A stretch of 64,000 nt of DNA, from positions 15,200-79,199 of the forward strand of contig CAZQCO010000003.1 of the NCBI GenBank assembly GCA_964592225.1. Reading direction: 5' to 3'. A program made the translations under genes and the position numbers. This document shows, in pieces, positions 33,209 to 64,000 of this stretch; within the stretch, counting starts at the first letter, position 1; each line of letters begins with the position of its first letter. This DNA is from an uncultured Bacteroidales bacterium. Its GTDB lineage: Bacteria; Bacteroidota; Bacteroidia; Bacteroidales; UBA10428. Below the pieces are notes generated by a model, which saw only the letters and a program-made list of their open reading frames with translations, ran no database searches and had not been told where the DNA came from.

Positions 33209-33449
33209 TTTATGAGTGAAGAACACTTGCTTTGAAAAAATTACTAAAAAAACAAGGATTTTCTAATATTATGCGGGATAAATGTCGGAGTATAAACGTC
33301 GGCAATTATACAAGAAGGAGTTAACTGGCAATAATGCGCAGAGAATAATAAAGAATTTTGGATTCAGTTAATAACACACAAATAAGTAGTTTTTAATGGA
33401 AGAGTGTGATACTTTACTGAATTCTCACTAGCAGAGGCTTATTGAAATT

Positions 33450-34835: not shown

Positions 34836-36647
34836 TTATTCATGGTTCTTGGGGAAGGCAGAAACAGCATTTTCATTTTTTCTCACAGGATTTTCAAGAA
34901 TAGGCAACATGCTGCTAAGTGGTTTACGGGTGCCTTCCATTTCGATATTGTTTAACAGAATAGCATTGGGCACAATAAAACTTGAAGGTATGCCGGCCAG
35001 GCCATTGCTGTTGTTTCCACCCGGAGGCAGTAATGTGTTATGTACCATTACAGAATCGGAGAAAACAGGAAAATGTCTTAAAGCCTGCAGAGTAAGATTT
35101 TTTAACCGAACGGAGCGAACCAGTTTTTCTTCTCCGGTTGTCACATCAACAAGGAAAAAGTTGAAGGGTTTATCCGAGCCACCTATTTCCAGCGATTTAA
35201 TCATCATGGCATAATCCAGTCCTTCTTCCCGTGCCCGATCAAGTAATTGTTGCTTTAATTTATCACGAGATACAGGATTGGAATTTTCAATCCGGATAAC
35301 ACCGGGTCCGGTTTGTGTATTCAAGCCATTATAGCTGTAGTTGAAGCGCATATGTCCGTTCGATTGGGGAACCTGACGCGATGGAGTACGGCCATTCAGC
35401 AAGGTTTTAAGAATTCCGTGCTGTACCAGTACCAGTCGTTCCTGGGGTATTACACCTTCTGCATCAATATCGAAAGTACCAATAAGCGGAATATTCTGAA
35501 ACTCTCTCAGAAATGGTTCAGCTGTTATAGTGAGATCACTGGAAATAATGGATTTATTGATTCGCGCTTGAAGGGCATTATTATTTTCTTCATAATAAAT
35601 ATTCATCTGGTCACTGCTTTGCAGGTTTTCTCGTGAGGCTATCAAAGCATCAGAGCCGGAGAACAGAAATCGTTCCAGGGTTTCAGCTGCTACCTCACCT
35701 ACAATCAATACAGGTCCGTAATAATTATCATCATAGCGTTCAGCACTCCTGAGGGCCAGTAAATTATCAACCATTTTCAGGATATCCTTTTTAATAGAAT
35801 CTGCGGAAGGCAACTCATCGGGTAAAAAAACCGTATAGGTGATATTCTTATTGAGGCGTTCACTATCGTCGGACAAGGTCCCTGCATACACGGATAGTGT
35901 TGTAATATTAAAAGGAAATTGTACTTCCGTCCCTTCGCTGTTATTAAAATATACTGTCGATCTGAAAATACTAAGAGCCACGGATGAAGAATATATTTCG
36001 GGAAAATTTTTCAGTATTTCAGAAATGAATTTCACTTTTTCTTCAAGTATTTTCTTTTGATTATCGGGTGCCTGATAATAGGTATATTTTTTAACCATTG
36101 GGGAACGGCTGAAATCGGCAATTTCCAGATCGGTTCCTTCAAGTTGTTTGTGTTCAATTTGGGCAATCTTGTTTTTATAGGTTTGAGCAGCTGAGTAATA
36201 TATATTATTGGTTGTCAGCCACAAAGAACGACGAATTCCGAGATAATCATCATCTACAGGCATATCGATACTAGGGCGGAACATAGTTTCTTCAGGCTGT
36301 GAGGAAGAGAAATTTTCATCATTGATTTCGTAATCACCTACCATCAAACGCACATGCCAGTCTTTGTATTTCAAATCGCTCGAACGAACCAGTGCACCCA
36401 ATGTGGCAATGATCTGAATTTGTTCGGCATCGGCAATTGTGTAGGCAATAAAGAAGGGTTTGTCCAGGTCCTCTGCATTTAATCCCTGCATGTTCCGGTA
36501 TAATTCATCGCGCATGGCGCTCATAATAATGCTATCGGAAGATGTTTGTGAAAAAAGTTTTATGGCAGGAGCAATCAGGAGAATAGAAAATATAAACAAC
36601 AGGCAAGCATTACGGGATTTTATATATTTTTTAAATAAACACATCAT
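34836..36647 (-). CDS. exported TldE/PmbA-like protein (no metal-binding motif)
   Basis: Has a signal peptide and is collinear with the upstream TldD-like paralog. The region aligning to HExxxH reads 'VAAETLERFLFSGSDAL', with no His. Confidence 0.65.
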   Translation of the reverse strand: MMCLFKKYIKSRNACLLFIFSILLIAPAIKLFSQTSSDSIIMSAMRDELYRNMQGLNAEDLDKPFFIAYTIADAEQIQIIATLGALVRSSDLKYKDWHVRLMVGDYEINDENFSSSQPEETMFRPSIDMPVDDDYLGIRRSLWLTTNNIYYSAAQTYKNKIAQIEHKQLEGTDLEIADFSRSPMVKKYTYYQAPDNQKKILEEKVKFISEILKNFPEIYSSSVALSIFRSTVYFNNSEGTEVQFPFNITTLSVYAGTLSDDSERLNKNITYTVFLPDELPSADSIKKDILKMVDNLLALRSAERYDDNYYGPVLIVGEVAAETLERFLFSGSDALIASRENLQSSDQMNIYYEENNNALQARINKSIISSDLTITAEPFLREFQNIPLIGTFDIDAEGVIPQERLVLVQHGILKTLLNGRTPSRQVPQSNGHMRFNYSYNGLNTQTGPGVIRIENSNPVSRDKLKQQLLDRAREEGLDYAMMIKSLEIGGSDKPFNFFLVDVTTGEEKLVRSVRLKNLTLQALRHFPVFSDSVMVHNTLLPPGGNNSNGLAGIPSSFIVPNAILLNNIEMEGTRKPLSSMLPILENPVRKNENAVSAFPKNHE

Positions 36648-36653
36648 AGTTAC

Positions 36654-38360
36654 TTACTTTCGGTTAAAAGACTTGTCGGGATTGGGCAACAAAGGTAACT
36701 GGCTATTGTATTCCGGAGTTTTCTGGGTCTCGATCTTCCTTACCAGAAGTGCCGGAGCGATAGTCGTTACTGGAATATGTCCCGATTCAGCTCCGCAAAA
36801 ACCAGTGAACACTTCTTTTTCTTTCCCGGCAGCAATAATATTAGAGAACATGGTTAGCGGAGTTCCTATAAGTTCTACACCCGAAACCAGTTCATCGGGC
36901 CGGCCATCGACATATATTCGGTATACTTCAATAGGATTTATATCGAAGACATTGGCATTGTACCTGTCGGTAAATGTTAAACCTCCGATCACTTCCTTAA
37001 AATAATAGCCATAGTCTTTTTTCTGCTTTTTACATTCTTTGATCAGCATTTTCCTCAGCTCATTATCATCATAAGGTTTTGAACTTTCTATAATGAGATT
37101 CGACTGACGTGATACTGGAGCAAAACCTGGCTGAGCCCTACCATGGCCGTTTGAATTTGCGAATTCCCGTATCGGACGACGTGACATCAGAAAACCCTGA
37201 AGGATACCATCTTTCACCAGGATCACCCTTTGTGCTTTAATTCCCTGATCGTCATATTTATAAGTCCCGATAAGATCCTGACCCTGCCATTCCTGGAGAG
37301 TGGGATCAGAGTTTACCTGAAACTCTTCGGGGAGTACTTCTTTACCAAGCTTATCTTTAAAGGTCTGACCATCGTCAAGACTTTCGAGCCGATGTCCTTC
37401 AACTCGGTGCCCGAAAATTTCATGAAAAAATACTCCGGCAGCTGCAGGTGAAAGTATAGCTGGCCCGGCATAGGGTTCTGCCATAACAGCCTGGTTCATA
37501 CTTAGCAGTTCGTCATAGAGTTTATGAAAATCGTTCAACATTGTTTCATGTGAGGGAAGGTCCTCAATCTGAAAAGCTGTATAGGATTTTTGAATGGGCA
37601 AAACAACACCACTTTTGTGGCGAATGCTGCCAATAAATTGTAGCTGACAATACTTTGAATTCTGAACAATACAACTTCCTTCCGAAGTAAGCAGGTATTT
37701 TCTTTGTAGAACTACATTGACTGAAGCTTCGCTATGGAAAATAAGTGTGTCGTCACCAAATATCGATGTATATTCTAATAACCTGGAGGTCCATTCGTCC
37801 TCGTCGAAATTCAGTTCTTGTTCGCTAAAAGGAGGATCGTAATATACGGTAGGGGTCTCTTTTGAAAAATCGCCGGAAGTATTATCGGAAGGAGGTATCT
37901 TCATATTCTGTAACGCGGTAAATTTACTCGCGGCATTCTTATAGGCCTGGTCGGATAATCGCCAAAGCACTTGTTTAATGGCATCCGATTCATTTTCGAA
38001 AGGAAGACTTGAACCTATAACTTCCATCTGTTCCGACATGGAAAAATTGCCCTGTAATTCGTGTGTATTATCGAATGAATAATCGCCAACCCTTACCATA
38101 ACTGTCAGAGCTCTGCTATGTGAGTTGTTTTTGCCAACAAGACTGCCAAAGGAAGCACGCAAATTGTATGAAGTTATTTCATCAACCCTGTAATCGATAT
38201 AGTAAAGCGAAGGATCCTGCCCGGAGAGTTCATCTACTTCCCGGTAAAGTTCTTCTTTAAGTATGTTGACCAGTGTATCTTTAGCCTGTAAAGGGAAAAC
38301 AGCAAAACAAAATAGTGCAAACACAACATAATAGAATCGATTTTTCCATACACTTCTCAT
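36654..38360 (-). CDS. exported TldD-like metallopeptidase
   Basis: Signal peptide 'MRSVWKNRFYYVVFALFCFAVFPLQA' and the TldD-type zinc motif 'FFHEIFGHRVEGH' (HExxxH) are present. Confidence 0.78.
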   Translation of the reverse strand: MRSVWKNRFYYVVFALFCFAVFPLQAKDTLVNILKEELYREVDELSGQDPSLYYIDYRVDEITSYNLRASFGSLVGKNNSHSRALTVMVRVGDYSFDNTHELQGNFSMSEQMEVIGSSLPFENESDAIKQVLWRLSDQAYKNAASKFTALQNMKIPPSDNTSGDFSKETPTVYYDPPFSEQELNFDEDEWTSRLLEYTSIFGDDTLIFHSEASVNVVLQRKYLLTSEGSCIVQNSKYCQLQFIGSIRHKSGVVLPIQKSYTAFQIEDLPSHETMLNDFHKLYDELLSMNQAVMAEPYAGPAILSPAAAGVFFHEIFGHRVEGHRLESLDDGQTFKDKLGKEVLPEEFQVNSDPTLQEWQGQDLIGTYKYDDQGIKAQRVILVKDGILQGFLMSRRPIREFANSNGHGRAQPGFAPVSRQSNLIIESSKPYDDNELRKMLIKECKKQKKDYGYYFKEVIGGLTFTDRYNANVFDINPIEVYRIYVDGRPDELVSGVELIGTPLTMFSNIIAAGKEKEVFTGFCGAESGHIPVTTIAPALLVRKIETQKTPEYNSQLPLLPNPDKSFNRK

Positions 38361-50264: not shown

Positions 50265-53200
50265 ATGATTAAAGGATTTCCAGAAGCACAGGGGTTGTAT
50301 GACCCTAATAATGAGCATGATAGCTGCGGAATTGGATTTGTAACCCAAATTAAAGGAAAAAAATCACACGATATCATTAAAAAGGGGCTTGAGGTTTTAG
50401 TGAATATGACTCACAGAGGAGCTGAGAGTGCTGATAATTTATCGGGCGATGGCGCAGGAATACTGATTCAACTACCACACGACTTTTTTATTCAGAAGGG
50501 TATCAGGGTGCCTGCAGAGGGTAGATATGGAACAGGTCTGGTTTTTCTTCCAAAGGACATAAAAAATAGAAAACAGTGTGAGGAAATTCTTTTAAATACC
50601 ATAACAAGTGAAGGTTTGGATGTTATTGAATTCACTGATGTAAAAGTTGATAATACAGTACTGGGAGAAATATCTCATGCCACCGAACCTTTTATTAAGC
50701 AAATATTCGTTACAGGTGACTATCCTGAACAGGAAATGCTTGAACGGAAACTATTTATAGCCCGTAAACTAACTGAAAGAGCTGTACGTGAATCTAATAT
50801 AAAAGAAAAAAAGGTATTTTATATTCCCAGTCTCTCATCAAAAATTTTTATATACAAGGGAATGTTAACTCCCGATCAGGTTGAAAGATATTTTGTTGAT
50901 CTGCGAGATCCCAATATAATTAGTGCTATTGCACTGGTACATTCACGTTTTTCAACAAACACTTTTCCAACCTGGGATTTAGCTCAGCCATTTCGATTTC
51001 TTGCACATAATGGAGAAATCAATACCATAAAAGGGAATCGTATGTGGATGACTGCCCGTGAATCGATAATGAAATCGGATTTGTTTGGCGATGATCTTGA
51101 AAAATTGTTTCCTATTATTGAACCGAATAAATCTGACTCGGCTTCTTTTGATAATGTACTGGAATTCCTGGTATTAACAGGTAAATCATTACCACATGCA
51201 CTAAGCATGTTAATACCTGAGTCGTGGAACGATAAAAATCCAATACCCCCTAGCCTGAAAGCTTTTTATGAATACCAGTCAACTCTGATGGAGCCCTGGG
51301 ACGGACCTGCATCGTTGGTCTTCAGCGATGGACGGTATATTGGCGGCACGCTCGATCGGAATGGTTTGCGCCCCTCGCGTTATATTATAACCAAAGACGA
51401 TTTAATAGTTATGGGTTCGGAGGTGGGTGTACAGATTTTCGAAGCGGAACAAATTAAAGAAAAAGGGCGCCTTCGTCCGGGTAAAATCCTGTTAGTCGAT
51501 ACAAAAATGGGTGTTATTGTACCTGATGAAGAAGTGAAGCACCAGCTGACCGACAGAAATCCTTATGCCCAATGGTTGGCTGAGAGCAGAGTTGAACTTG
51601 GAGAAATCAAAGTAAGAAAGCGGGTTCCCACCAGCCTTGGAGATAATTTTGAAGCATACCTGAGAGAATTCGGGTATACAAAAGAAGATATAGATTTTCT
51701 TTTAAAACCAATGGGATTGCAGGGTCAGGAACCGATTCATTCTATGGGCAACGACACACCTTTAGCACTTTTCTCCGATAAGCCACAACGCTTCTTCAAT
51801 TATTTTAAGCAGCTTTTTGCCCAGGTAACCAATCCTCCAATAGACCCAATTCGGGAAGGTCTTGTAATGGCGTTAACCAATTATATAGGATCGGTTTCAA
51901 AAAATATACTCGTCGAATCTTCAAGTCATTGCAAACTTATTAAGTTTCTTTCACCCATAGTTTCTAATACCGATCTGAACAAACTCCGAAATCTCAGGGA
52001 GGAAAATTTTTCCTATATTGATATCCCTATTCTTTTTCCTGCGAAAGGCAAAGGATTAGGTAAAGGTCTTGAAATGGCCCTGGAAGATATTTGCCAAAAA
52101 GCTGAGCAAGCTGTGGATGCCGGTAAAAACTTCATTATTCTGACCGACCGGGGCATTAATGAAGATATGGCTCCTATCCCTTCCTTACTGGCTACATCAG
52201 CTGTTCATCATCATTTAATACGTTCAAAAAAGCGTATGCAGGTTGGCGTAGTAGTAGAGACTGCCGAAGCCCGCGAAATAAACCATTTTGCGTTGCTTAT
52301 CGGATATGGCGCCAGTGTTGTAAATCCCTATGCAGCATTTGCTGTTATTGAAGATAAATGCCTTAAAGGTGAAATTGAAATAGATTACGTTATAGCACGC
52401 GAAAACTATATTAAAGCAATTGACAAGGGCTTATTAAAAATTCTTTCCAAGATGGGGATATCTACTTTAAGGAGTTATCATGGTTCTCAGATTTATGAAG
52501 CCCTGGGGATAGGCAATGAAATTATTGAGAAGTATTTTACAGGAACAGACTCTAGAATTGGTGGTATCGGTTTTGAGGAAACAGCAAAAGAAGTGCTGAT
52601 TAATCATTCCATTGCTTTCGGGAACGACCCGAAATTACTTCACGTACTTAAAACGGAAGGCATCTACCATTTTCGCTACGATGGTGAAAGACATGGATGG
52701 AATCCGGAATCGATCGGATTACTTCAATGGGCCACCCGGGCGAAAGATTACAACAAATTTAAAGAATTTACCACGCTGGTAGATCATGAAAATCGGAAAC
52801 CCCATTTTTTGCGTGGTTGTGTAAATATTAAAAAGTGTGATCCTATACCTATCGACGAAGTTGAAGCGGTTGATACGATCATGAAACGTTTTGTCACCGG
52901 AGCTATGTCATATGGATCAATAAGTAAAGAAGCACATGAGGCATTAGCCATTGCTATGAACAGGATTGGAGGCAAAAGCAATACGGGCGAGGGAGGTGAA
53001 GACACGGAACGATTTAAGCCGAGAGAAAATGGCACATGGGCTCGGAGTGCCATTAAACAGGTAGCTTCCGGACGGTTTGGGGTTACTACCAATTACCTGG
53101 TAAATGCCGACGAAATTCAGATAAAAATTGCCCAGGGAGCAAAACCAGGCGAAGGTGGACAATTACCGGGCTACAAAGTGGATAAAGTTATCGCCCGTCT

Positions 53201-54809
53201 ACGGCACAGTACACCGGGTATTACGCTGATATCTCCCCCACCTCACCATGATATTTATTCTATCGAAGATCTTGCACAATTGATTTTCGACCTGAAATGC
53301 ACAAACCCAAAAGCTAGAATTAACGTTAAACTGGTTTCTGAGAAAGGAGTTGGTACAGTTGCTGCAGGCGTTGCCAAAGCTTATGCCGACAGTATTACTA
53401 TTTCTGGTGCTGAAGGAGGTACAGGAGCAAGTCCTGCCAGTTCAATTAAACATGCCGGATTACCTATGGAACTGGGGATCTCTGAAGTTCAGCAAACCCT
53501 GGTTATGAACAATCTTCGTGACAGGGTTCGTCTGCAAACCGACGGGCAGCTGAAAACAGGACACGATGTGATTTATGCGGCACTATTGGGTGCTGAAGAA
53601 TTTGGATTTGCAACTGTAGCCCTGGTTGTGTTAGGGTGTATTATGATGAGAAAATGCCATCTGAATACCTGTCCTGTAGGTGTTGCCACACAAGATCAAG
53701 AATTGCGCAAGCGTTTTCTTGGTAAATCGGAGTTTGTAATAACTTACTTTAATTTTTTAGCACAGGAAATCCGTGAATATCTGGCCGAAATGGGATTTCG
53801 CAAATTCGATGATATTGTAGGACGTACCGATCTGCTGGAACAACGCTCTGATATTCAACACTGGAAAGCTTCGAAAGTTGATTTATCAAAAATACTCTTC
53901 CGTCCCAAAGAAGCCGATATTTACGAAAACCATTGCGTATGTTTCCAAAATCATAAAATAGAGGATATTATGGATCGCGGTTTAATAAAACAGGCTGCTA
54001 GTTCCATAAAAAACAAAAATAAAGTCTGGATTTCGCGCAAAATACAAAATACGGATCGAACGGTGGGAGCTATGCTATCGGGTGAAATATGTCTTGTATA
54101 CGGCGAAGAGGGGCTACCCGATAAAACAATAAATTGTATGTTCACCGGTTCTGCGGGACAGAGTTTTGGAGCCTTTCTTGTTAAAGGGCTTAATTTCTAC
54201 CTGGAAGGCGATGCGAATGATTATCTGGGAAAAGGATTGTCGGGGGGACGTATTATTGTTGTTCCTCCTAAAGGATCTATCTTCAAACCTGAAGAAAACA
54301 TTATCATCGGTAATACTGTCCTTTATGGGGCTACAGACGGTGAAGCATATATTCGGGGTGTTGCCGGTGGTAGGTTCTGTGTTCGAAATTCGGGGGCCAG
54401 AGCTGTTGTGGAAGGTGTAGGCGACCATTGTTGTGAATACATGACAGGTGGCTGCACTGTTGTTCTTGGACAAACAGGACGTAATTTTGCGGCAGGTATG
54501 AGTGGTGGAATTGCTTATGTCCTGAATCAGAATGGAAATTTCGATTATTTCTGTAATAAAGGCATGGTGGAACTTGGACCTATTTCCGACAGGGATGATG
54601 AAATGGAACTCCAGGAGATGATTAACAACCACCTGAATTATACTGGTTCGGAACTGGCAAGAGAAATCCTGGTGAACTGGGAAGTTTACCTTCCTCGATT
54701 TGTTAAGGTGATTCCTTTTGAATACAAAAAAATCCTTCAGGAAATTAAACTTGAACAAATAAAGAGTGAAATTGAAAAAACGGAGGACGAACCGCATTTT
54801 CAATATTAA
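50265..54809 (+). CDS. gltB: glutamate synthase large subunit
   Basis: 1514 aa. The Ntn-amidotransferase Cys appears in 'EHDSCGIGFV'. The central, FMN and 3Fe-4S domains show 'GEGGE', 'KIAQGAKPGEGGQLPG' and 'CIMMRKCHLNTCPVG'. A C-terminal GXGXG domain follows. Confidence 0.97.
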   Translation: MIKGFPEAQGLYDPNNEHDSCGIGFVTQIKGKKSHDIIKKGLEVLVNMTHRGAESADNLSGDGAGILIQLPHDFFIQKGIRVPAEGRYGTGLVFLPKDIKNRKQCEEILLNTITSEGLDVIEFTDVKVDNTVLGEISHATEPFIKQIFVTGDYPEQEMLERKLFIARKLTERAVRESNIKEKKVFYIPSLSSKIFIYKGMLTPDQVERYFVDLRDPNIISAIALVHSRFSTNTFPTWDLAQPFRFLAHNGEINTIKGNRMWMTARESIMKSDLFGDDLEKLFPIIEPNKSDSASFDNVLEFLVLTGKSLPHALSMLIPESWNDKNPIPPSLKAFYEYQSTLMEPWDGPASLVFSDGRYIGGTLDRNGLRPSRYIITKDDLIVMGSEVGVQIFEAEQIKEKGRLRPGKILLVDTKMGVIVPDEEVKHQLTDRNPYAQWLAESRVELGEIKVRKRVPTSLGDNFEAYLREFGYTKEDIDFLLKPMGLQGQEPIHSMGNDTPLALFSDKPQRFFNYFKQLFAQVTNPPIDPIREGLVMALTNYIGSVSKNILVESSSHCKLIKFLSPIVSNTDLNKLRNLREENFSYIDIPILFPAKGKGLGKGLEMALEDICQKAEQAVDAGKNFIILTDRGINEDMAPIPSLLATSAVHHHLIRSKKRMQVGVVVETAEAREINHFALLIGYGASVVNPYAAFAVIEDKCLKGEIEIDYVIARENYIKAIDKGLLKILSKMGISTLRSYHGSQIYEALGIGNEIIEKYFTGTDSRIGGIGFEETAKEVLINHSIAFGNDPKLLHVLKTEGIYHFRYDGERHGWNPESIGLLQWATRAKDYNKFKEFTTLVDHENRKPHFLRGCVNIKKCDPIPIDEVEAVDTIMKRFVTGAMSYGSISKEAHEALAIAMNRIGGKSNTGEGGEDTERFKPRENGTWARSAIKQVASGRFGVTTNYLVNADEIQIKIAQGAKPGEGGQLPGYKVDKVIARLRHSTPGITLISPPPHHDIYSIEDLAQLIFDLKCTNPKARINVKLVSEKGVGTVAAGVAKAYADSITISGAEGGTGASPASSIKHAGLPMELGISEVQQTLVMNNLRDRVRLQTDGQLKTGHDVIYAALLGAEEFGFATVALVVLGCIMMRKCHLNTCPVGVATQDQELRKRFLGKSEFVITYFNFLAQEIREYLAEMGFRKFDDIVGRTDLLEQRSDIQHWKASKVDLSKILFRPKEADIYENHCVCFQNHKIEDIMDRGLIKQAASSIKNKNKVWISRKIQNTDRTVGAMLSGEICLVYGEEGLPDKTINCMFTGSAGQSFGAFLVKGLNFYLEGDANDYLGKGLSGGRIIVVPPKGSIFKPEENIIIGNTVLYGATDGEAYIRGVAGGRFCVRNSGARAVVEGVGDHCCEYMTGGCTVVLGQTGRNFAAGMSGGIAYVLNQNGNFDYFCNKGMVELGPISDRDDEMELQEMINNHLNYTGSELAREILVNWEVYLPRFVKVIPFEYKKILQEIKLEQIKSEIEKTEDEPHFQY

Positions 54810-54841: not shown

Positions 54842-56290
54842 ATGGGAAATCCAAAAGGGTTTATGACCATAGAGCGAAAGCCGGCAGGATATCGTCCAAA
54901 AGACGAAAGGGTTAAAGATTATAGTGAAGTTGAGCAGGTTTTAAACGAAAAGGACAGAAAAGATCAGGCCTCGCGTTGCATGGATTGCGGTATACCTTTC
55001 TGTCAATGGGGATGCCCTGTTATAAATAACATGCCCGAATGGCAGGATGCCATTTTCAGGGGTGACTGGCAGGAAGCAATAGATAATCTTCAGGTAACCA
55101 ATAATTTCCCCGAATTTACGGGTAGAGTTTGTCCGGCACCCTGTGAACATGCATGCACCCTGAATATTAATGAAGAACCTGTTACCATACGTGAAAATGA
55201 ATGTGCCACGGCCGATCAGGCGTTTGACAGGGGTCTGATAATACCAAGACCTCCGAAGCTACGTACAGGTAAAAAAGTTGCAGTAGTTGGCTCGGGTCCG
55301 GCAGGTCTTGCCTGTGCCGATCTTTTAAATAAGTGGGGACATACGGTTACTGTTTATGAAAAAGATGAAGCAATAGGAGGTTTACTTCGGTATGGGATTC
55401 CTGATTTCAAGCTTGGAAAAAACGTTATCGACCGGCGGCTGAATATTCTGCTGGCCGAAGGTCTTCAGTTTAAAACCAATTGCCACGTGGGGGCCGATGT
55501 GAAAGGGGAAGAACTTCTTAAGAATTTTGATGCGCTGGTGTTGGCAATAGGTGCAATGAAACCAAGAGATCTGAATGTTGAAGGAAGAAAACTGAAAGGG
55601 GTGCATTTTGCCATGGAATTTCTTACCCAGCAGAACAGGGTAATTGCCGGTACAAAAATTGTGAATGGAGACCGAATTTCAGCTACCGGCAAAAATGTAC
55701 TGATTATTGGCGGCGGCGATACGGGTTCCGATTGTGTAGGGACTTCGGTAAGGCAAGGCGCTGCCAGTTTACAACAGATTGAAATATTGCCCAAACCTCC
55801 CGATAAGCGATCACTTAATAATCCCTGGCCATACTGGGCCAATACCCTTCGCACATCGTCATCGCATCAGGAAGGTTGTGAACGTTCGTGGGGGCTTAAT
55901 ACAACAAAGCTTATTGGAGATAAAGATGGCAATGTTAAAGCAACTGAAGTGGTGGAAGTGGAGTGGAAGAAGGAAAACCTGCCTGACGGCAAGGCAGGAG
56001 GCCAGTTTACGATGATAGAAAAGCCAGAAACAAAACGACAGATTAAAGCCGATCTTGTGCTGCTTTCCATGGGATTTGTACATTGTTATCACGAAGGTTT
56101 AGCAAGCGAGCTGGGAGTTACATTCGACAAACGTGGAAACATAGCAACCGATACATCCGATAGAACCTCCGGCGCAAAGGTATTTGCTGCCGGCGATGCG
56201 GTTTCAGGAGCCAGCCTGGTAGTAAGGGCCATTGCTTCGGGCCGGAAGGCAGCCGATAATGTGCATGATTACTTGATGAAGATTAAATAG
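54842..56290 (+). CDS. gltD: glutamate synthase small subunit (NAD(P)H-dependent)
   Basis: Fe-S Cys clusters are 'CMDCGIPFCQWGCP' and 'CPAPCEHAC'. Dinucleotide folds are 'VAVVGSGPAGLA' and 'VLIIGGGDTGSD'. Confidence 0.95.
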   Translation: MGNPKGFMTIERKPAGYRPKDERVKDYSEVEQVLNEKDRKDQASRCMDCGIPFCQWGCPVINNMPEWQDAIFRGDWQEAIDNLQVTNNFPEFTGRVCPAPCEHACTLNINEEPVTIRENECATADQAFDRGLIIPRPPKLRTGKKVAVVGSGPAGLACADLLNKWGHTVTVYEKDEAIGGLLRYGIPDFKLGKNVIDRRLNILLAEGLQFKTNCHVGADVKGEELLKNFDALVLAIGAMKPRDLNVEGRKLKGVHFAMEFLTQQNRVIAGTKIVNGDRISATGKNVLIIGGGDTGSDCVGTSVRQGAASLQQIEILPKPPDKRSLNNPWPYWANTLRTSSSHQEGCERSWGLNTTKLIGDKDGNVKATEVVEVEWKKENLPDGKAGGQFTMIEKPETKRQIKADLVLLSMGFVHCYHEGLASELGVTFDKRGNIATDTSDRTSGAKVFAAGDAVSGASLVVRAIASGRKAADNVHDYLMKIK

Positions 56291-56311
56291 CAAATACAAA
56301 ACATAAATAGA

Positions 56312-56338
56312 ATGCCGGATTATATCCCGGCATTTTTT
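56312..56338 (+). terminator. rho-independent terminator after gltD
   Basis: Stem ATGCCGG (56312-56318) pairs with CCGGCAT (56327-56333), and a 6-T run follows directly. Confidence 0.7.
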
Positions 56339-56790: not shown

Positions 56791-57792
56791 ATGAAAATCA
56801 TGGCTGATTTAACAACAAAATACCTGGATTTCGAACTGAAAAATCCGATCATTGTGGGGAGTTGCAGTTTAACAGCATCGGTTGAGGATATTGTGCAATT
56901 GGAACAAAACGGAGCCGCTGCCATTGTTCTTAAATCGATTTTTGAAGAAGAGATTCTTCTTAAGGCGGATCACGATTTAAAAATAGCCAAGAAAAGCAAT
57001 TTTATCTATTCGGAGTTATCGGAAACGCTGGATTATATTGATATTCATACAAAAGTAAAGCGTCTGGGAGAATACCTGAAGATGATACAGGATGTAAAAA
57101 AGAAAATACTCATTCCTGTTATTGCCAGTATAAATTGTATCACCAATCTGGAATGGGCTTTTTTTGCAGCAAAAATCCAGGATGCGGGAGCCGATGCAAT
57201 CGAGCTGAATATTTCTCTTAATCCAATGGATACCGGAAAAAGGGATTATGAGAAATTGATCCAAAATATAGTAACCAAAGTTTTAAAATCAGTGAGCATC
57301 CCGGTTTCTGTTAAATTAAGCGATTGTTTTACCAATTTATCACATACTATCCTTGAAATATCAAAAACGGGAATTAAAGGGATAGTAATGTTTAACAGGT
57401 TTTATACCCCTGATATTGATATATATAATTTGAATATTGTATCGGGCAGAATGCATAGTTGTGAGACAGAATATGTTAAACCATTACGATGGATTGCGCT
57501 GTTGTCTGACAAAATTGATTGTAGTATTGCAGCTTCAACCGGCATTCACGATGCCAACACCGTGGTAAAACAAATACTGGCAGGGGCCGATGCGGTTCAG
57601 GTGGTCTCTGCGTTGTATCTGAATGGGAAAGGTTATATCAATCAATTGCTGACAGGTATTGAGAAATGGATGCTCGATAAAGGATATTTCTCTGTACAGC
57701 AATTCAAAGGATTGGCCAGCTACAAAAAGACCACCAATCCTGCAGCGTACGAGAGAATCCAGTTTATGAAGTATTTTGGAAGAATTGGTTAA
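56791..57792 (+). CDS. dihydroorotate dehydrogenase-like (DHOD/DHPD family TIM-barrel) protein of unknown substrate
   Basis: 333 aa. 'LKNPIIVGSCSLT', 'AIELNIS', 'PVSVKLS', 'NRFYTPDIDI' and 'IAASTGIHDA' follow the DHOD-family FMN-barrel layout. It resembles the uncharacterised 'DHOD-like protein' group rather than PyrD proper. The ATG at 56800 is an alternative start. Confidence 0.65.
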   Translation: MKIMADLTTKYLDFELKNPIIVGSCSLTASVEDIVQLEQNGAAAIVLKSIFEEEILLKADHDLKIAKKSNFIYSELSETLDYIDIHTKVKRLGEYLKMIQDVKKKILIPVIASINCITNLEWAFFAAKIQDAGADAIELNISLNPMDTGKRDYEKLIQNIVTKVLKSVSIPVSVKLSDCFTNLSHTILEISKTGIKGIVMFNRFYTPDIDIYNLNIVSGRMHSCETEYVKPLRWIALLSDKIDCSIAASTGIHDANTVVKQILAGADAVQVVSALYLNGKGYINQLLTGIEKWMLDKGYFSVQQFKGLASYKKTTNPAAYERIQFMKYFGRIG

Positions 57793-58023: not shown

Positions 58024-61000
58024 TTGAAGAGGGTCACGCGAAGTATCATTAGTAAACAGTTACAAACAGCTAATTGTATGCATAAATCAAATATAGTACA
58101 GGAAGACGATAACAAGGCGATAGTTATTCAAAAAATTTTAGCTCTTCTGAATAATTCTGATTCATTGGCTGCTTCGCTTCAGGAAATATGTAACCTATTG
58201 CCCGGAGCTTACGCAAATTCTGATTTGGTCTCAGCAAAAATGGTGATTGATGATAAGGTTTTTTATTCAAAAAATTTTAAAGAAACCCAATGGCAGGAAA
58301 AGCATGTTTTTGAAACACCGGGAATTAAAGAGTCGGCAGTTGAAATATATTTCACACATAATTATCTTGAAAAAGCGGGGCAGGATTTCATTCTCAAGGA
58401 CACTAATTTTCTGGTTGCGGTAGCTACTTTGTTAAGTGGAGCCATATCGCGTTCTGAGCTGAAAAAACTTCTCTATGAAAATACGGAACGGCTCAAGGAA
58501 TTGCGGGGAATCAACCGGACTGCCGATATACTCAGTCGTGGAACTACGTTGGAGGAGTCGTTACAGGAAATATGTTCCTTTCTACCTGAGGCCTGGCAAT
58601 ATCCTGAATTTACAGTTACTCGCATAACCTATGAAGATAAGGTTTTTAAAGGAAGAAATTTTAAGGTAACACCCTGGGTACAAAGCCAGCAATTCGAGAC
58701 TCCCGATGGGAAAAAAGGTCTTATCGAGATATACTACCTGAAAGAGTTTCCTTTATCTTTCGAAGGGCCGTTTCTTCAGGAAGAACGCAATCTCATCGAT
58801 AATCTGGCTGCACTTATTTCAGGAACTGTTTCAAAAAATACCCTGCAGAAATTATTGATCCAAAATACGGAAAGGCTGAAAGAATTGCGCGGCATTAACC
58901 AGACATCTTTGATTCTAAAGCAAAGCAAGTCGATCGAAGAATCACTGAAAATGATTTGTTCCATATTGCCCGAAGCCTGGCAATATCCTGAATATACGGC
59001 AGTGAGGATTATATTCGAGAAACAGGTTTTTTCCAGTATTAATTTTAAAAAAACCCGATGGGTTCAAAAACAGTTTTTTGAAACCCCGGGGCATAAAAAA
59101 GGAACAATAGAAGTTTATTATCTTAAAGAATTTCCACAGGAAGATGAAGGTCCTTTTTTAAAAGAAGAACGGAACCTTTTAATTAATCTGGCCAACCTGA
59201 TTGCGGGTTCAGCCAGCCGGCATGTGTTAAGCAAATTATTAAGTGAAAATAAAGAACGATTAAAGGAACTTAAAGCGATTAATCAAACCTCAAAAATTAT
59301 TGCTGAAGGAAAATCGATTGATGAAACCCTGCAGGAAATCTGTTCCATTTTACCCCGGTCGTGGCAATATCCCAAATATACCGGAACCCGGATCATATAC
59401 GAAAGAAAAACTTATGTCAGTCACGAATTTCCCGAAACAGTTTGGTCACAAAGGGAAAACTTCGTTACCATTGATAATAAAAAGGGTACTATCGAAGTAT
59501 TCTATCTCAAGGAATTCCCAAAAGAATATGAAGGCCCTTTCCTTAAAGAGGAGAGAAATTTGCTTATCAATTTAGGCAAGCTCATTAGCGGATATTTGAA
59601 TAATTACAAAGGGAGGGAAATGGTTCGTAAAAATATTTTCGGGGAACGTGAAAAGAGCCCTTCGACCGATTATCGCGAATCGCTGGTTCGGAATAAACAA
59701 CCTCTGCAGTTATTCTTTAACAAACAGGTACTCGATAAGTATATATATCTTGATATGATGAAATTTAAAGTGAAAGAGATCCTGTTTGTTGCCACATTAT
59801 ACGATGCCTTTACGTTACAGGCCGAAGATAATTTTTTCGAACGCTTTATGGGGGTAATTTATCAATACAGTTTATTCTCATTGCCACGTATCACAGGAGT
59901 AACTTCACCTGATGAGGCAATTGAGTTGCTTGATACTACCCGCTTTGATCTGGTGATTCTAATGGTAGGACTTGACAGGGAATCGCCAATAATGCTAAGT
60001 GAACGAATAAAACAACAGCAGCCCGATCTGCTGGTTTACCTGTTATTGAACCAGAGAAGTAATATCAACTATTTTGAAGAACTTGTTCCTCGATTGCCAT
60101 CGATCGATAAAATATTTACCTGGAATGGTGATTCGCAAATATTTTTTGCCATTGTAAAATCAACGGAAGATAAGGCAAATGTCGATAACGATACCATAAT
60201 CGGGTTGGTAAGGATTATTTTACTGGTCGAAGATTCGGCCCCATACTATTCAAAATACCTGCAGATTCTTTATTCTATTGTTTTCGATCAGGTTCAACAA
60301 TTATTACCGGAAGTTGAAAAAAATGAACTCGATAAGATTGCTAAAATGCGGTCGCGACCAAAAATACTTCTTGCCCGTAATTATGAAGATGCGCAATATA
60401 TCTTCAATAGGTATAAGGATTTTATGCTGTGTGTGATTTCCGATGTAGAGTTCGAAAAGGACGGGAAACTCGATAAAAAAGCAGGCATTAAGTTCATTAA
60501 TTACGTAAAATCGCACATTATTAACCTTCCAATTATTTTACAATCATCGGATGATAAAAATAAGAAACTGGCAAATGAACTGAAGGTCAGTTTTATCAAT
60601 AAAAATTCTGAAACCCTATTAACCGATCTGAAAAAATTTCTGACACAATACCTGGGATTCGGTGATTTTATTTTCAGGGATAAAGAGGGGAATCCCATTG
60701 CCAGAGCTCATTCGCTAAGAGAATTTGAAACATTGCTGCAAAAAATTTCCGATGAGACTTTCTACTTTCATGCACGCGAGAATCAGTTCTCGCTTTGGCT
60801 AATGGCCCGCGGAGAAATTCAACTTGCCAGAACACTGAATCCGATGAGGGTTAACAATATTTATAATATTAAAAATTCGAAATATCAGTTTCTTAAAACC
60901 CTTAAGCAGTACAAGGAAGAGAAAAAAAGGGGGAAAGTACTGAATTATGAGGAAACATCGACTTTAGACGAAAAGAACATCATTGCCTATTCTTCCGGAT

Positions 61001-62667
61001 CATTTGGAGGGAAAGGCAGAGGCCTTGCATTTATTAACGTACTGATTAATAATCTCGATTTTACTTCCTTTAACAAGAAAATCAATATACGTACTCCAAA
61101 AACAGTTATCATCGGGACCGATGAATTCGAAAGCTTTCTTGAGATCAATAGATTTTATGATGTTATCATTAATAAGAAAATAAACTATCAGCAGCTGAGA
61201 TCGTTATTTGTAAACGGAGAACTCTCCACAACACTTACCGAGAGGCTTAGAATATTTCTTGATCAGGTGGATCGTCCTGTTGCAGTGCGTTCGTCGAGCT
61301 TGCTTGAAGATTCTATTTCACAGCCTTTTGCAGGAATATTTGATACCTATATTATTCCCTATAAGAAGGGTATGCAAAAGAAAACCACACTCGAAAAACT
61401 ATCAAAAGCCATTAAACTGGTTTTTGCATCGGTATATTCCGATGAAGCCCGGGCCTATTTCAATACGATACATCATAAAATAGAGGAAGAAAAGATGGCA
61501 GTTGTGCTGCAGGAACTAGTGGGAAAACAGTTTGATAGTTATTACTATCCCCATATTAGCGGGGTGGCTCAATCCTATAATTTCTACCCGGTGGCTCACA
61601 TGGACCCCGAAGAAGGATTTGCTGTTATTGCATTAGGCTTGGGAGCATATGTTGTTGGGGGAAGAAATTCGTACCGCTTTTCGCCAAAATATCCAAAAGT
61701 TGAGATGTATTCCTCCAGAGACATACTAAACAGTTCACAGGTTCAGTTCTATGCACTCGATTTATCTAAAAAAAATATCGATTATGTAAAAGAGGGAGAA
61801 CTGGCTTCATTAACACTTCTTGATATAGATATTGCCGAGAAACAGGGAACACTTAAACATCTGGCTTCGGTATACAATTCAGAGAATGATCGTATCGATT
61901 CCGGCTTGAGCGCTGCAGGTCCACGGATAATGAATTTTGCTGATATTTTGAAATACGATTACATTCCACTGGCCGAAACTATTGATATGATGCTGACTAC
62001 TATTAAAGATGCCTTGGGATCTCCGGTCGAAATTGAATTTGCTGTTGATCTGAATCCAACTCTGAACGAACTGCCTTCTTTTTACCTGCTACAGGTTAAA
62101 CCTCTTGTAGGTAACCAGTATAGCAATAATATTGATTTTTCCCAGTTAGATAGATCCAGAATGATCCTGTACACGGAAACATCGCTTGGTAATGGTGAGT
62201 TTAACGATATATATGATGTAATATGTATCGATGTAACTCATTTCGATAAATTAAAAACACTCGAAATGGCTGCCGAAGTGGAATATCTGAACGATAAGCT
62301 TAAAAAACAGAATAGGCAGTATATACTTATCGGACCCGGACGCTGGGGCACACGCGATCGTTTTCTTGGAATACCTGTCAACTGGAATCAGATCTCAAAT
62401 GCCAAAGTGATTGTTGAAATCAGTCTGGCCAATTATCCGCTCGACTCATCGCTGGGATCGCATTTTTTTCACAATATTACTTCCATGAATATTGGATATT
62501 TCTCTGTTCTCGATTCAGCGGATAATAATTTTATTAAATGGAAATTACTGGACCGTGAAAATTTAAGCAGCCGGACCAAATATTTTAAGCACATTCAATT
62601 CGAAAAGCCGTTAACGGTTTTAATGAATGGTAAAACAAGAAGTGCTGCAATTATTGATAATTCCTGA
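58024..62667 (+). CDS. multidomain signalling protein: 4 tandem GAF-like sensor repeats, pseudo-receiver, receiver, PPDK_N-type ATP-grasp (PEP/pyruvate-binding) domain
   Basis: Residues ~26-537 hold four 128-aa repeats ('SLQEIC..LP.AWQYPE.T..RI...F..T.W....FETP..KKG.IE.YYLKEFP...EGPFL.EERNL'). Residues ~583-715 are receiver-like but lack the acidic pocket ('ILFVATLYDAF', 'DLVILMVGLD'). Residues ~729-876 form a receiver with 'ILLVEDS', 'LCVISDVEF' (D807, codon 60442-60444), 'PIILQSS' and 'FINKN'. Residues ~880-1547 carry PPDK_N hallmarks: 'SFGGKGRGLAFIN', 'PVAVRSSSLLEDSISQPFAGIFDT', 'MAVVLQELVG...ISGVAQS', 'VEIEFAVD', 'YLLQVKPL'. The start is either TTG 58024 (track) or ATG 58078. Confidence 0.8.
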   Translation: MKRVTRSIISKQLQTANCMHKSNIVQEDDNKAIVIQKILALLNNSDSLAASLQEICNLLPGAYANSDLVSAKMVIDDKVFYSKNFKETQWQEKHVFETPGIKESAVEIYFTHNYLEKAGQDFILKDTNFLVAVATLLSGAISRSELKKLLYENTERLKELRGINRTADILSRGTTLEESLQEICSFLPEAWQYPEFTVTRITYEDKVFKGRNFKVTPWVQSQQFETPDGKKGLIEIYYLKEFPLSFEGPFLQEERNLIDNLAALISGTVSKNTLQKLLIQNTERLKELRGINQTSLILKQSKSIEESLKMICSILPEAWQYPEYTAVRIIFEKQVFSSINFKKTRWVQKQFFETPGHKKGTIEVYYLKEFPQEDEGPFLKEERNLLINLANLIAGSASRHVLSKLLSENKERLKELKAINQTSKIIAEGKSIDETLQEICSILPRSWQYPKYTGTRIIYERKTYVSHEFPETVWSQRENFVTIDNKKGTIEVFYLKEFPKEYEGPFLKEERNLLINLGKLISGYLNNYKGREMVRKNIFGEREKSPSTDYRESLVRNKQPLQLFFNKQVLDKYIYLDMMKFKVKEILFVATLYDAFTLQAEDNFFERFMGVIYQYSLFSLPRITGVTSPDEAIELLDTTRFDLVILMVGLDRESPIMLSERIKQQQPDLLVYLLLNQRSNINYFEELVPRLPSIDKIFTWNGDSQIFFAIVKSTEDKANVDNDTIIGLVRIILLVEDSAPYYSKYLQILYSIVFDQVQQLLPEVEKNELDKIAKMRSRPKILLARNYEDAQYIFNRYKDFMLCVISDVEFEKDGKLDKKAGIKFINYVKSHIINLPIILQSSDDKNKKLANELKVSFINKNSETLLTDLKKFLTQYLGFGDFIFRDKEGNPIARAHSLREFETLLQKISDETFYFHARENQFSLWLMARGEIQLARTLNPMRVNNIYNIKNSKYQFLKTLKQYKEEKKRGKVLNYEETSTLDEKNIIAYSSGSFGGKGRGLAFINVLINNLDFTSFNKKINIRTPKTVIIGTDEFESFLEINRFYDVIINKKINYQQLRSLFVNGELSTTLTERLRIFLDQVDRPVAVRSSSLLEDSISQPFAGIFDTYIIPYKKGMQKKTTLEKLSKAIKLVFASVYSDEARAYFNTIHHKIEEEKMAVVLQELVGKQFDSYYYPHISGVAQSYNFYPVAHMDPEEGFAVIALGLGAYVVGGRNSYRFSPKYPKVEMYSSRDILNSSQVQFYALDLSKKNIDYVKEGELASLTLLDIDIAEKQGTLKHLASVYNSENDRIDSGLSAAGPRIMNFADILKYDYIPLAETIDMMLTTIKDALGSPVEIEFAVDLNPTLNELPSFYLLQVKPLVGNQYSNNIDFSQLDRSRMILYTETSLGNGEFNDIYDVICIDVTHFDKLKTLEMAAEVEYLNDKLKKQNRQYILIGPGRWGTRDRFLGIPVNWNQISNAKVIVEISLANYPLDSSLGSHFFHNITSMNIGYFSVLDSADNNFIKWKLLDRENLSSRTKYFKHIQFEKPLTVLMNGKTRSAAIIDNS
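58099..59634 (+). repeat. four intragenic tandem repeats with an exact 384-nt (128-aa) period
   Basis: The equivalent codons T154, T282 and K410 of '(T/K)ERLKEL' start at 58483, 58867 and 59251, each 384 nt apart. 'SLQEIC' of repeat 1 and repeat 2 are also 128 aa apart. By my hand count repeats 2 and 3 are ~60% identical at protein level; repeat 1 is the most diverged. Confidence 0.9.
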
Positions 62668-62672
62668 AAACT

Positions 62673-63326
62673 ATGATACAGGTAGGCATCTATGATGAAC
62701 ACAAACTGGCCCAGGAAGGATTAAGGTCACTTCTTGAGGAGGTAATGGATGTTGAAGTTGTATTTGCAGCCGAAACTAAAGATATGCTTTTTGAAAAACT
62801 GAATGCTGCCCCGGTTCATATACTCTTAGTGAATATTCACTCGCTTACTACCCAGTTTCTGAATGCCATTATGCAGGTGAATATCGGATTCCCAAAAATA
62901 AATATTCTGGTAATGTCCGCCCATAATGATGAAGACACTATTTTAAAAACAATAAAAACAGGGGCTAAAGGATTTCTCGCACGCAATACCGATAAGAATG
63001 AACTTATCGAAGCCATTTATTCCCTGCGAGGCGGACATGATTTCTACAGTAAGTCGATAACTCACTTATTGATAAATAAATATATCACACGATTACAGAA
63101 TGAAGGAAATGAAAATATAAATAATATTCAGAGTTTGAGTACCCGCGAAATTGAGATAATAAAATTATGGGGAAGGAGTCAGACCAATAAAGAAATTGCC
63201 GATAAATTGTTTATTAGCGTGAGGACAGTCGAATCGCATAAAAACCATATTATGCAAAAACTTAACCTGAAAACTGCGGTCGATCTGGTAAAGTTTGCTA
63301 TCAAGAATAATATCATTGAAATATAA
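62673..63326 (+). CDS. LuxR/NarL-family regulator with atypical (Asp-less) receiver domain
   Basis: The C-terminal GerE/LuxR HTH reads 'LSTREIEIIKLWGRSQTNKEIADKLFISVRTVESHKNHIMQKL'. The N-terminal receiver fold keeps 'YDEH' and 'ILVMSA'. The phospho-acceptor position reads 'HILLVNIHSL' (Asn54, AAT at 62832-62834). The conserved Lys position reads 'GFLARN' (Arg104). The gene starts 5 nt after the stop of the upstream gene. Confidence 0.85.
   Translation: MIQVGIYDEHKLAQEGLRSLLEEVMDVEVVFAAETKDMLFEKLNAAPVHILLVNIHSLTTQFLNAIMQVNIGFPKINILVMSAHNDEDTILKTIKTGAKGFLARNTDKNELIEAIYSLRGGHDFYSKSITHLLINKYITRLQNEGNENINNIQSLSTREIEIIKLWGRSQTNKEIADKLFISVRTVESHKNHIMQKLNLKTAVDLVKFAIKNNIIEI

Positions 63327-63503: not shown

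Positions 63504-64000
<497 letters not shown>

Follow-up and report, generated by a model that had tools for sequence, protein, structure and literature searches.

Introduction

To our knowledge, every characterised enzyme with a PPDK_N-type ATP-grasp domain uses a carrier histidine, and we know of none that moves the phosphoryl group straight from the grasp to a substrate. Ammonium assimilation genes (gdhA, gltBD) are matched to 2-oxoglutarate and nitrogen status by PII/NtrBC and GlnR/TnrA-type systems. Much less is understood of their control in the Bacteroidota, a major bacterial group of the gut, the rumen, sediments and the sea, than of PII/NtrBC control in Proteobacteria. Here we analyse a gene of an uncultured Bacteroidales bacterium (GTDB lineage UBA10428), located in a 64,000-nucleotide stretch of contig CAZQCO010000003.1 (assembly GCA_964592225.1, positions 15,200 to 79,199, forward strand; hereafter the window). 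The gene encodes a soluble multidomain signalling enzyme (hereafter the sensor enzyme), in which GAF-like modules and two receiver (REC) domains precede a PPDK_N ATP-grasp. We tentatively favour a role as a sensor enzyme of carbon/nitrogen status that acts at the glutamate node by PPDK-type phosphotransfer.

Proteins combining a receiver with a PPDK domain are recorded as "Bacteroides-like" in the response-regulator census of Galperin et al. (2018; PMC5847659), and in its treatment of effector domains the study of Maule et al. (2015; PMC4395418) places PPDK among those highly associated with aspartate-less receivers, which are known to work without phosphorylation. An earlier note on this DNA, made from the sequence alone, had called the protein the best candidate in the window for an undescribed signalling system; the architecture is, however, on record in these censuses and present in thousands of database proteins. 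The database names of the family are "hypothetical protein", "PEP/pyruvate-binding domain-containing protein", "DUF5752 family protein" and "pyruvate, phosphate dikinase". In the literature on PPDK_N with response regulators, on DUF5752, on the NCBI product name and on Bacteroides glutamate dehydrogenase (GDH) regulation, we found no functional study, in agreement with the earlier note, which knew of no experimentally assigned function. The finding itself is real and was accurately described, and the family is large, widespread, found mainly in Bacteroidota and functionally uncharacterised.

Architecture of the sensor enzyme

A single long open reading frame (ORF) extends over 58024..62667 on the + strand and would yield 1547 amino acids (aa) from a TTG start in the window ORF list. 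An identical database protein has 1529 aa and starts at ATG 58078 (MHKSN...), which is therefore the likely start of the gene. Residues are numbered from this ATG; numbers in the earlier note, counted from TTG 58024, are higher by 18. That note had described four sensor modules on ERLKEL helices, a receiver-like domain lacking the acidic pocket, a second receiver with its phosphorylation residues (its E735/D736, D807, S841 and K860, here E718/D719, D789, S823 and K842) and a C-terminal PPDK_N region. The ORF list, Pfam matches and structural models bear out this order and place a DUF5752-like helical linker between receivers and grasp and a family-specific tail after the grasp. The features of the gene are as follows.

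58078..62667, + strand: sensor-enzyme gene, 1529 aa (ORF list, database copy)
58078..58482, + strand: GAF-like repeat 1, residues 1-135, the most divergent copy (repeat alignment, model, Foldseek)
58483..58866, + strand: GAF-like repeat 2, residues 136-263, with the ERLKELRGIN linker helix at its start (repeat alignment, model, Foldseek)
58867..59250, + strand: GAF-like repeat 3, residues 264-391 (repeat alignment, model, Foldseek)
59251..59652, + strand: GAF-like repeat 4, residues 392-525, with a long helix at its end toward REC1 (repeat alignment, model, Foldseek)
59770..60201, + strand: REC1, an aspartate-less pseudo-receiver, residues ~565-708 (Pfam, model, Foldseek, conservation)
60214..60651, + strand: REC2, a complete receiver, residues ~713-858, with E718/D719, D789 (codon 60442-60444), S823 and K842 (conservation, model, Foldseek)
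60655..60972, + strand: helical linker, residues 860-965, with the conserved motif H..N.FS.WL..RGE (Pfam, conservation, model)
61000..62112, + strand: PPDK_N ATP-grasp, residues 975-1345, with K979, R1071, E1077, D1078, E1320 and Q1339 intact (Pfam, NCBIfam, profile, conservation)
62113..62664, + strand: family-specific C-terminal domain, residues 1346-1529, with GPGRWG (1419-1424), SLGSHFFHN and H1462 (codon 62461-62463) (model, consensus, conservation)

Two AlphaFold models, each built on alignments of 65 homologues, cover residues 1-545 (pLDDT 77.3) and 545-1529 (pLDDT 78.5). The second resolves two receiver-type alpha/beta domains, the helical linker, the ATP-grasp and a separate C-terminal alpha/beta domain. 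In Foldseek it is matched best by PleD (REC-REC-output, E=3.5e-8) and, over 689 aligned columns, by the pyruvate phosphate dikinase structure 1ggo (E=1.7e-5); PorX and single receiver domains come next. The Pfam match of the linker to DUF5752 (PF19027) is faint and confined to residues 876-922.

As the earlier note had stated, the protein does not have the domains of a histidine kinase or of a canonical PEP-utilising enzyme. No Pfam match to HisKA, HATPase_c, PEP-utilizers (PF00391) or PEP-utilizers_C was obtained at E≤1 over the whole protein, nor at E≤10 in the C-terminal 208 aa. The combination that defines a histidine kinase (HisKA or an equivalent DHp domain plus HATPase_c) was thus not found with Pfam at E≤1, and neither Pfam nor NCBIfam detected a phosphoenolpyruvate (PEP)/pyruvate TIM barrel (PF02896) or a rifampicin-binding domain.

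ATP-grasp and C-terminal histidine domain

The grasp matches PF01326 over residues 975-1345 with E=1.2e-38 (133.6 bits against a cut-off of 27), and a family profile searched against Protein Data Bank (PDB) sequences retrieves rifampicin phosphotransferase (RPH; 5hv1, 5fbs) and PEP synthases at ~1e-11, aligning the RSS..ED..FAG core with both. The protein thus carries the nucleotide-binding domain of the PEP-utilising dikinase/phosphotransferase superfamily (PpsA, PPDK, RPH). NCBIfam covers just the N-terminal half of the grasp, with partial matches to its rifampicin phosphotransferase, PigC/RedH and PEP synthase models, and full-length equivalog scores lie far under the cut-offs. K979, R1071, E1077, D1078, E1320 and Q1339, which include the metal ligands, are conserved in 258-259 of 259 aligned modules. 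Because the catalytic residues are near-invariant and the core aligns with known enzymes, the ATP-grasp is very probably active.

The model gives good confidence to the C-terminal ~185 residues, a strongly conserved domain with an invariant histidine, H1462, that the earlier note had missed. The consensus of 145 diverse tails reads lGnG..i.d...LiGpGRWGs.D..LGiPV.W..Is.a..ivE...pSqG.HFF.N...gY, and G1421, R1422, G1424, E1447, S1458, G1460 and H1462 are conserved in 257-258 of the 259 modules, down to ~30% identity, a level equal to that of the catalytic residues of the grasp. A single member, P0195, lacks the grasp residues, and it is also the sole member without H1462. These patterns suggest that the tail is part of the catalytic machinery. 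H1462, preceded directly by a Ser/Thr, belongs to the one loop of the modelled domain with low pLDDT, just ahead of a helix; the tail itself follows the grasp directly, at the site that the swivel domain takes in PpsA and PPDK.

Given a conserved histidine domain at the swivel position and the use of a carrier histidine by the characterised PPDK_N enzymes, H1462 is, by analogy, the most likely candidate for a phosphohistidine carrier. The earlier note had reported no swivel-His domain and concluded that the acceptor must be something else. The first part stands, as no canonical swivel is present, and the second was premature in view of the invariant [ST]-His tail domain at the swivel position. 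The proposal that the tail is itself a canonical swivel domain gained no support in any sequence test, and what is left of it is an analogy of position and motif. Besides the swivel searches that are weighed below, the tail profile found no swivel domain among all PDB sequences, the only stretch of the grasp-plus-tail profile that paired the tail with the RPH His domain scored 0.5 bits, and the second module of relative P0168, which is more canonical, revealed no swivel similarity when used as query. The tail may be a different His-loop domain or a swivel domain diverged beyond detection.

Receiver pair

Conservation of the receivers was counted over 108 diverse relatives. REC1 has the receiver fold without the acidic pair or the acceptor Asp, both in the sensor enzyme and in these relatives, which carry Ser/Ala and Ser/Thr at the acidic pair and Thr/Ile/Val or Met at the acceptor site. 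In the sensor enzyme the Pfam Response_reg match is sub-threshold (residues 605-657, 24 bits against a cut-off of 30); the domain is annotated for many homologues in the database. In REC2, E718 is conserved in 102, D719 in 94, D789 in 96, S823 in 103 and K842 in 104 of the relatives, and on account of this conservation REC2 looks like a functional phospho-acceptor. About 10% of the family are without D789 yet keep the output module.

A cognate histidine kinase in the neighbourhood was considered and rejected, since none recurs in the 80 neighbourhoods surveyed below and the only kinases in the window lie 25-45 kb off. These are a hybrid histidine kinase (HisKA-HATPase-REC, 13699-16515, - strand) and a sensor histidine kinase (HK_sensor_dom_bact-PAS-HisKA-HATPase, 31040-33226, - strand), and nothing ties either to REC2.

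GAF-like repeat array

Residues 1-525 consist of four repeats of ~128 aa each; repeats 1, 2 and 4 share 36%, 64% and 57% identity with repeat 3. LLxxNxERLKELxxIN helices occur at the three repeat junctions with a spacing of exactly 128 residues, and AlphaFold (residues 1-545) models each repeat as helix, helix, four strands and a long helix. With this four-repeat model, Foldseek retrieves tandem-GAF proteins (E=1e-4 to 7e-3, highest probability 1.0), namely PDE5/6, CyaB2, the photosensory module of a bacteriophytochrome and phytochrome GAF-PHY domains. Pfam gives no GAF or PAS match to the repeats even at E≤10, so the label "GAF-like", also used in the earlier note, holds at the level of the predicted fold only.

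The best Foldseek match of the array (58078-59712) by E-value is the N-terminal regulatory region of the M. smegmatis 180-kDa large glutamate dehydrogenase (7jsr, E=4e-5), with a probability of 0.57 and a TM score of 0.09, a curious match beside the gdhA linkage described below. All four window repeats (58078-59652) share a Cys in the motif IC..LP.(A/S)(W/Y)(Q/A), which is Val in some relatives.

Distribution and conserved gene neighbourhood

A search of 1.84 billion representative sequences with residues 860-1529 yielded 3251 relatives, of which 731 score below 1e-30. Most commonly the protein is ~1000 aa long, with only two receivers ahead of the module. Relatives carrying the two tail motifs occur in at least 598 GTDB species genomes, mostly of Bacteroidales or Marinilabiliales, and include the isolates Mariniphaga anaerophila DSM 26910, Marinifilum, Carboxylicivirga and Odoribacter; a few metagenome-assembled genomes (MAGs) with the family are labelled Chlorobiota, Cloacimonadota, Spirochaetes, Firmicutes or Alphaproteobacteria.

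Neighbourhoods were counted over the best 80 species loci, with all neighbouring ORFs clustered without bias. At these loci the protein falls into length classes of ~990, 1150, 1280, 1400 and 1530 aa, which correspond to 0, 1, 2, 3 and 4 repeats. The core of REC-REC, grasp and tail is constant, with zero to four GAF-like modules added N-terminally, and because of this constant core the family is formally a response regulator with enzymatic output. PAS_3 is among the Pfam domains listed for relative P0325. Three further relatives of ~1520-1650 aa (P0168, P0232, P0251) contain two PPDK_N-plus-tail modules with one GAF-like module between them, and the C-terminus of P0251 is a nucleotidyltransferase domain.

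The linkage to gdhA, gltBD and 2-oxoacid:acceptor oxidoreductase genes, which the earlier note had missed, is the strongest functional clue. Recurrent neighbours in the survey were the following.

28/80 loci: NADP-type glutamate dehydrogenase (gdhA)
16/80 loci: aspartate-less LuxR regulator
15/80 and 13/80 loci: 2-oxoacid:acceptor oxidoreductase beta and alpha subunits, respectively, directly upstream on the same strand
11/80 loci: glutamate racemase
9/80 loci: GltD/NfnB-like protein
6/80 loci: NfnA-like protein
5-6/80 loci: NuoE/F-like proteins
5/80 loci: DHO_dh-like (dihydroorotate-dehydrogenase-like) protein

The most consistent neighbour is gdhA, which in its 28 loci lies within ~1-2 genes (~4 kb) of the sensor gene. 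At least five arrangements are seen, with gdhA downstream of the LuxR-type response regulator, downstream of a tandem paralogue, divergent at 70-300 nt upstream, divergent across the response regulator, or convergent. Marinifilum caeruleilacunae (L077), a culturable carrier, has a divergent gdhA. At least one repeat is present in 24 of the 26 gdhA-linked loci with a complete sensor gene. In a MAG labelled Syntrophomonadaceae (L085), gdhA, the sensor gene and korAB stand in a row.

Tandem paralogues were found at no fewer than 19 loci (22 with truncated ones), where a repeat-bearing copy is followed within 0-100 nt by a repeat-less copy with the motifs intact in both. None of these loci has the LuxR partner, and gdhA often follows. 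One example is L036 (4079-7561 and 7561-10563); others include L015, L018, L027, L032, L033, L035, L037, L039, L047, L063, L070, L075 and L082.

A link to gut Bacteroides was considered and dropped, as the nearest relatives of the one locus labelled "Bacteroides sp." were all from environmental MAGs, and no named gut Bacteroides was among the relatives found. GDH activity in B. thetaiotaomicron reportedly depends on one or more trans-acting genes near gdhA (so the title of a 1996 work by Baggio and Morrison, cited in PMC4539542), which may or may not be related to the sensor family.

Gene context in the window

In the window the sensor gene lies in a run of genes in the order carB, argG, argH, proB, proA, citrate synthase, gltB, gltD, DHO_dh-like gene, sensor gene, response regulator and gdhA. 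Its nearest elements are listed here.

50265-54809, + strand: gltB, glutamate synthase large subunit (Pfam)
54842-56290, + strand: gltD, glutamate synthase small subunit (Pfam)
56309-56336: terminator-like hairpin after gltD
56791..57792, + strand: dihydroorotate-dehydrogenase-like gene (NF005741), directly upstream of the sensor gene (Pfam, neighbour survey)
62673..63326, + strand: REC-GerE (LuxR/NarL-type) regulator (Pfam, NarL alignment, orthologues)
63537..64000, + strand: gdhA, NADP-type glutamate dehydrogenase, 5' part, cut by the window edge (neighbour survey)

The order sensor gene, response regulator, gdhA also occurs in another genome (6.2 Mb) and in a Prolixibacteraceae MAG. The DHO_dh-like gene is likewise an upstream neighbour in L001/L002 and in five survey loci; in L001 (4448-7795) it follows NfnA-like and GltD-like genes, a recurrent trio near glutamate genes. 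A sigma-70 promoter scan, a method unsuited to Bacteroidota, gave a count no better than in shuffled sequences.

The regulator gene begins 5 nt past the sensor stop codon. Its product has a GerE helix-turn-helix (PF00196, E=4.6e-18), and aligned with NarL it shows Asn at the acceptor site (NarL D59) and Arg at the conserved Lys (K109). Among 17 orthologues beside family members, the D59 column holds N in nine, V in three and S, I, E and D in one each, and the Lys is conserved in five. This alignment marks the neighbour as an aspartate-less regulator of the LuxR type. With the acceptor Asp absent, it is unlikely to receive phosphate by classical His-to-Asp transfer, and this canonical form of the transfer that the earlier note had suggested testing was rejected.

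Elsewhere in the window, two - strand ORFs at 22026-24881 (950 aa) and 29639-30967 (441 aa) have no Pfam match at E≤1e-5, a TldD/PmbA-type metallopeptidase pair lies at 34836-38360 (- strand), and 4267-7371 (+ strand) encodes a 1034-aa homologue of TMEM260-like protein O-mannosyltransferases. In a Prolixibacteraceae MAG (L003/L004, 218-6749) a Cas12a (Cpf1)-Cas1-Cas2 locus with a Bro-N gene stands just upstream of the sensor gene.

Possible function and alternatives

Since the family adjoins gdhA and other glutamate/2-oxoglutarate genes, the sensor enzyme probably controls nitrogen assimilation, and from this gene context we infer that the family acts at the 2-oxoglutarate/glutamate, or carbon/nitrogen, node. 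On the basis of the observed architecture, conservation and linkage, one might picture the ligands, the use of H1462 in catalysis and the target as follows. Metabolites would bind the GAF-like modules and a kinase would phosphorylate D789, and together these events would set the conformation or dimer state of the receiver pair, which would switch on the ATP-grasp. The grasp would then load a phosphoryl group onto H1462 in the mobile tail loop, as PpsA, PPDK and rifampicin phosphotransferase load their carrier histidines, and from H1462 the group would pass to a target that controls the expression or activity of glutamate dehydrogenase. As acceptor, D789 in cis and GDH are candidates, as are the tandem paralogue of other genomes and the co-transcribed aspartate-less LuxR regulator (through a non-Asp residue, or controlled by docking between receivers).

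Several observations weigh against this proposal. The linkage to gdhA is seen in only 35% of the loci, mostly with repeat-bearing forms, and part of it may stem from shared ancestry within the Bacteroidales. No kinase for D789 is linked in the 80 loci or the window. The joint loss of the grasp residues and H1462 was seen in one sequence only (P0195). Pfam returned no PF00391 swivel match at E≤10 in the sensor-enzyme tail or in 36 diverse tails, and hhalign gave a probability below 1% for the tail against the swivel domains of E. coli PpsA and PtsI. The tail profile found in the PDB only marginal matches, to longin domains (VAMP7 and related proteins, E=0.008-0.03), which span the region of the His motif; we took these as chance and rejected a longin assignment.

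The best-surviving alternative, which we nonetheless consider unlikely, is an ordinary response regulator whose output enzyme attaches phosphate to a small molecule or ligates it. Here the ATP-grasp would use a metabolite of the glutamate/2-oxoglutarate node as its direct substrate, the tail would bind the substrate or form the lid of the active site, and H1462 would serve in catalysis instead of as a carrier. The GAF-less REC-REC-module protein is the commonest form, as expected for a response regulator, and the census papers, where they treat the combination, class REC-PPDK as a response regulator with enzymatic output (PMC5847659, PMC4395418). The neighbours are metabolic enzymes rather than signalling proteins, homology of the tail to a swivel is undetectable, and the PPDK_N proteins PigC, RedH and rifampicin phosphotransferase act on small molecules, judging by their NCBIfam names. 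Direct transfer would, however, depart from all characterised PPDK_N enzymes known to us; moreover, the invariant [ST]-His in a mobile loop right after the grasp suits a carrier, and at many loci the immediate partner is a regulator or a tandem paralogue.

A rather improbable variant is a self-contained analogue of a histidine kinase, in which grasp and tail would stand in for HisKA/HATPase: the grasp would load H1462, the phosphohistidine would phosphorylate D789 in cis or across a dimer, and the phosphorylated receiver pair would control partners such as the LuxR-type regulator or the paralogue by docking. It would account for the lack of a linked histidine kinase in the 80 neighbourhoods and for a complete, conserved receiver pocket that is always fused to the module, and the tandem paralogues suggest hetero-oligomers. 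Because the partner regulators cannot accept phosphate on Asp, any Asp chemistry would also have to end within the sensor protein. The position of the receiver N-terminal of the module is, on the other hand, the usual layout for a receiver that controls an output, and orphan response regulators are so common that a missing linked kinase weighs little. Furthermore, no known PPDK-type phosphohistidine donates to Asp, and the ~10% of members that lost D789 retain the module.

A bolder extension of the favoured proposal would make the grasp and the His-loop tail an unrecognised route to a signalling protein phosphohistidine that replaces HisKA/HATPase and is relayed to D789 or a protein target (LuxR regulator, paralogue or GDH), and the main carbon/nitrogen switch for ammonium assimilation in Bacteroidota; we regard this as a long shot.

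It is highly doubtful that gdhA, gltBD and kor genes adjoin the sensor gene through inherited synteny devoid of functional meaning and that the sensor enzyme regulates something unrelated. Most loci do come from one order-level clade, 65% have no gdhA in their flanks, and the recurrent neighbours FabD, GTP cyclohydrolase I and SOD resemble plain synteny. Against this, gdhA has been kept adjacent in at least five orders or orientations, which argues for selection on the linkage, the glutamate synthase (GOGAT), KorAB-type oxidoreductase, glutamate racemase and NfnAB-like neighbours share a metabolite pool, and the consecutive gdhA, sensor gene and korAB recur in the MAG labelled Syntrophomonadaceae.

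Least probable of all is a non-catalytic grasp that senses energy charge through ATP/AMP, in a scaffold sequestering or releasing the aspartate-less LuxR regulator: control by protein-protein contact is plausible for a partner that has no phosphoacceptor, as aspartate-less receivers do work without phosphorylation (PMC4395418), but near-invariant catalytic residues including the metal ligands are unexpected in a binding-only domain and the LuxR partner is present in only 16 of 80 loci.

With its presence in at least 598 species genomes and its recurrent position beside gdhA, gltBD and 2-oxoacid oxidoreductase genes, the family is a concrete candidate for the control of ammonium assimilation in Bacteroidota, and the cultured carriers Marinifilum, Mariniphaga, Carboxylicivirga and Odoribacter make it testable. 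It would show what role a PPDK-type ATP-grasp plays when it is no longer tied to pyruvate/PEP chemistry and answers to two-component signalling and ligands. The tail is possibly a new phosphohistidine carrier domain, and the family could reveal a new kind of such carrier.

Comparison with known systems

PII/NtrBC and GlnR/TnrA-type systems are functional analogues only, the role of the sensor enzyme being proposed from gene context, and apart from the receiver domain they have no homologous parts. The small alpha/beta modules on long signalling helices ahead of a catalytic output recall PDE5/6, CyaB2 and GAF-PHY proteins. In contrast to tandem-GAF enzymes and phytochromes, the sensor modules measure only 128 aa, have four strands, stand four in a row and have no Pfam GAF/PAS match.

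PleD (REC-REC-GGDEF) is the best structural match to residues 565-860 and likewise places a phosphorylatable and an adaptor receiver ahead of an enzymatic output. In the sensor enzyme the order is reversed, with the pseudo-receiver first, and the output is an ATP-grasp instead of a diguanylate cyclase.

PpsA, PPDK and rifampicin phosphotransferase (5hv1, 5fbs, 1ggo) share with the sensor enzyme a PPDK_N domain with the GGKG, RSS..ED..FAG and E/Q metal-ligand motifs. Like PpsA and PPDK, it has an additional His-bearing domain directly after the grasp, and like rifampicin phosphotransferase it does without a PEP/pyruvate barrel. It differs from all three in having no detectable PF00391 swivel, TIM barrel or rifampicin-binding domain and in its fusion to receivers and GAF-like sensors.

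The REC-PPDK response regulators of the censuses show the same domain combination and an association with aspartate-less receivers, as in REC1 (PMC5847659, PMC4395418). In the parts of these papers that deal with it, the combination is recorded and no function is assigned; relative to those parts, the family described here adds the zero to four GAF-like extensions, the His-loop tail, the aspartate-less LuxR partner, the tandem paralogues and the linkage to gdhA.

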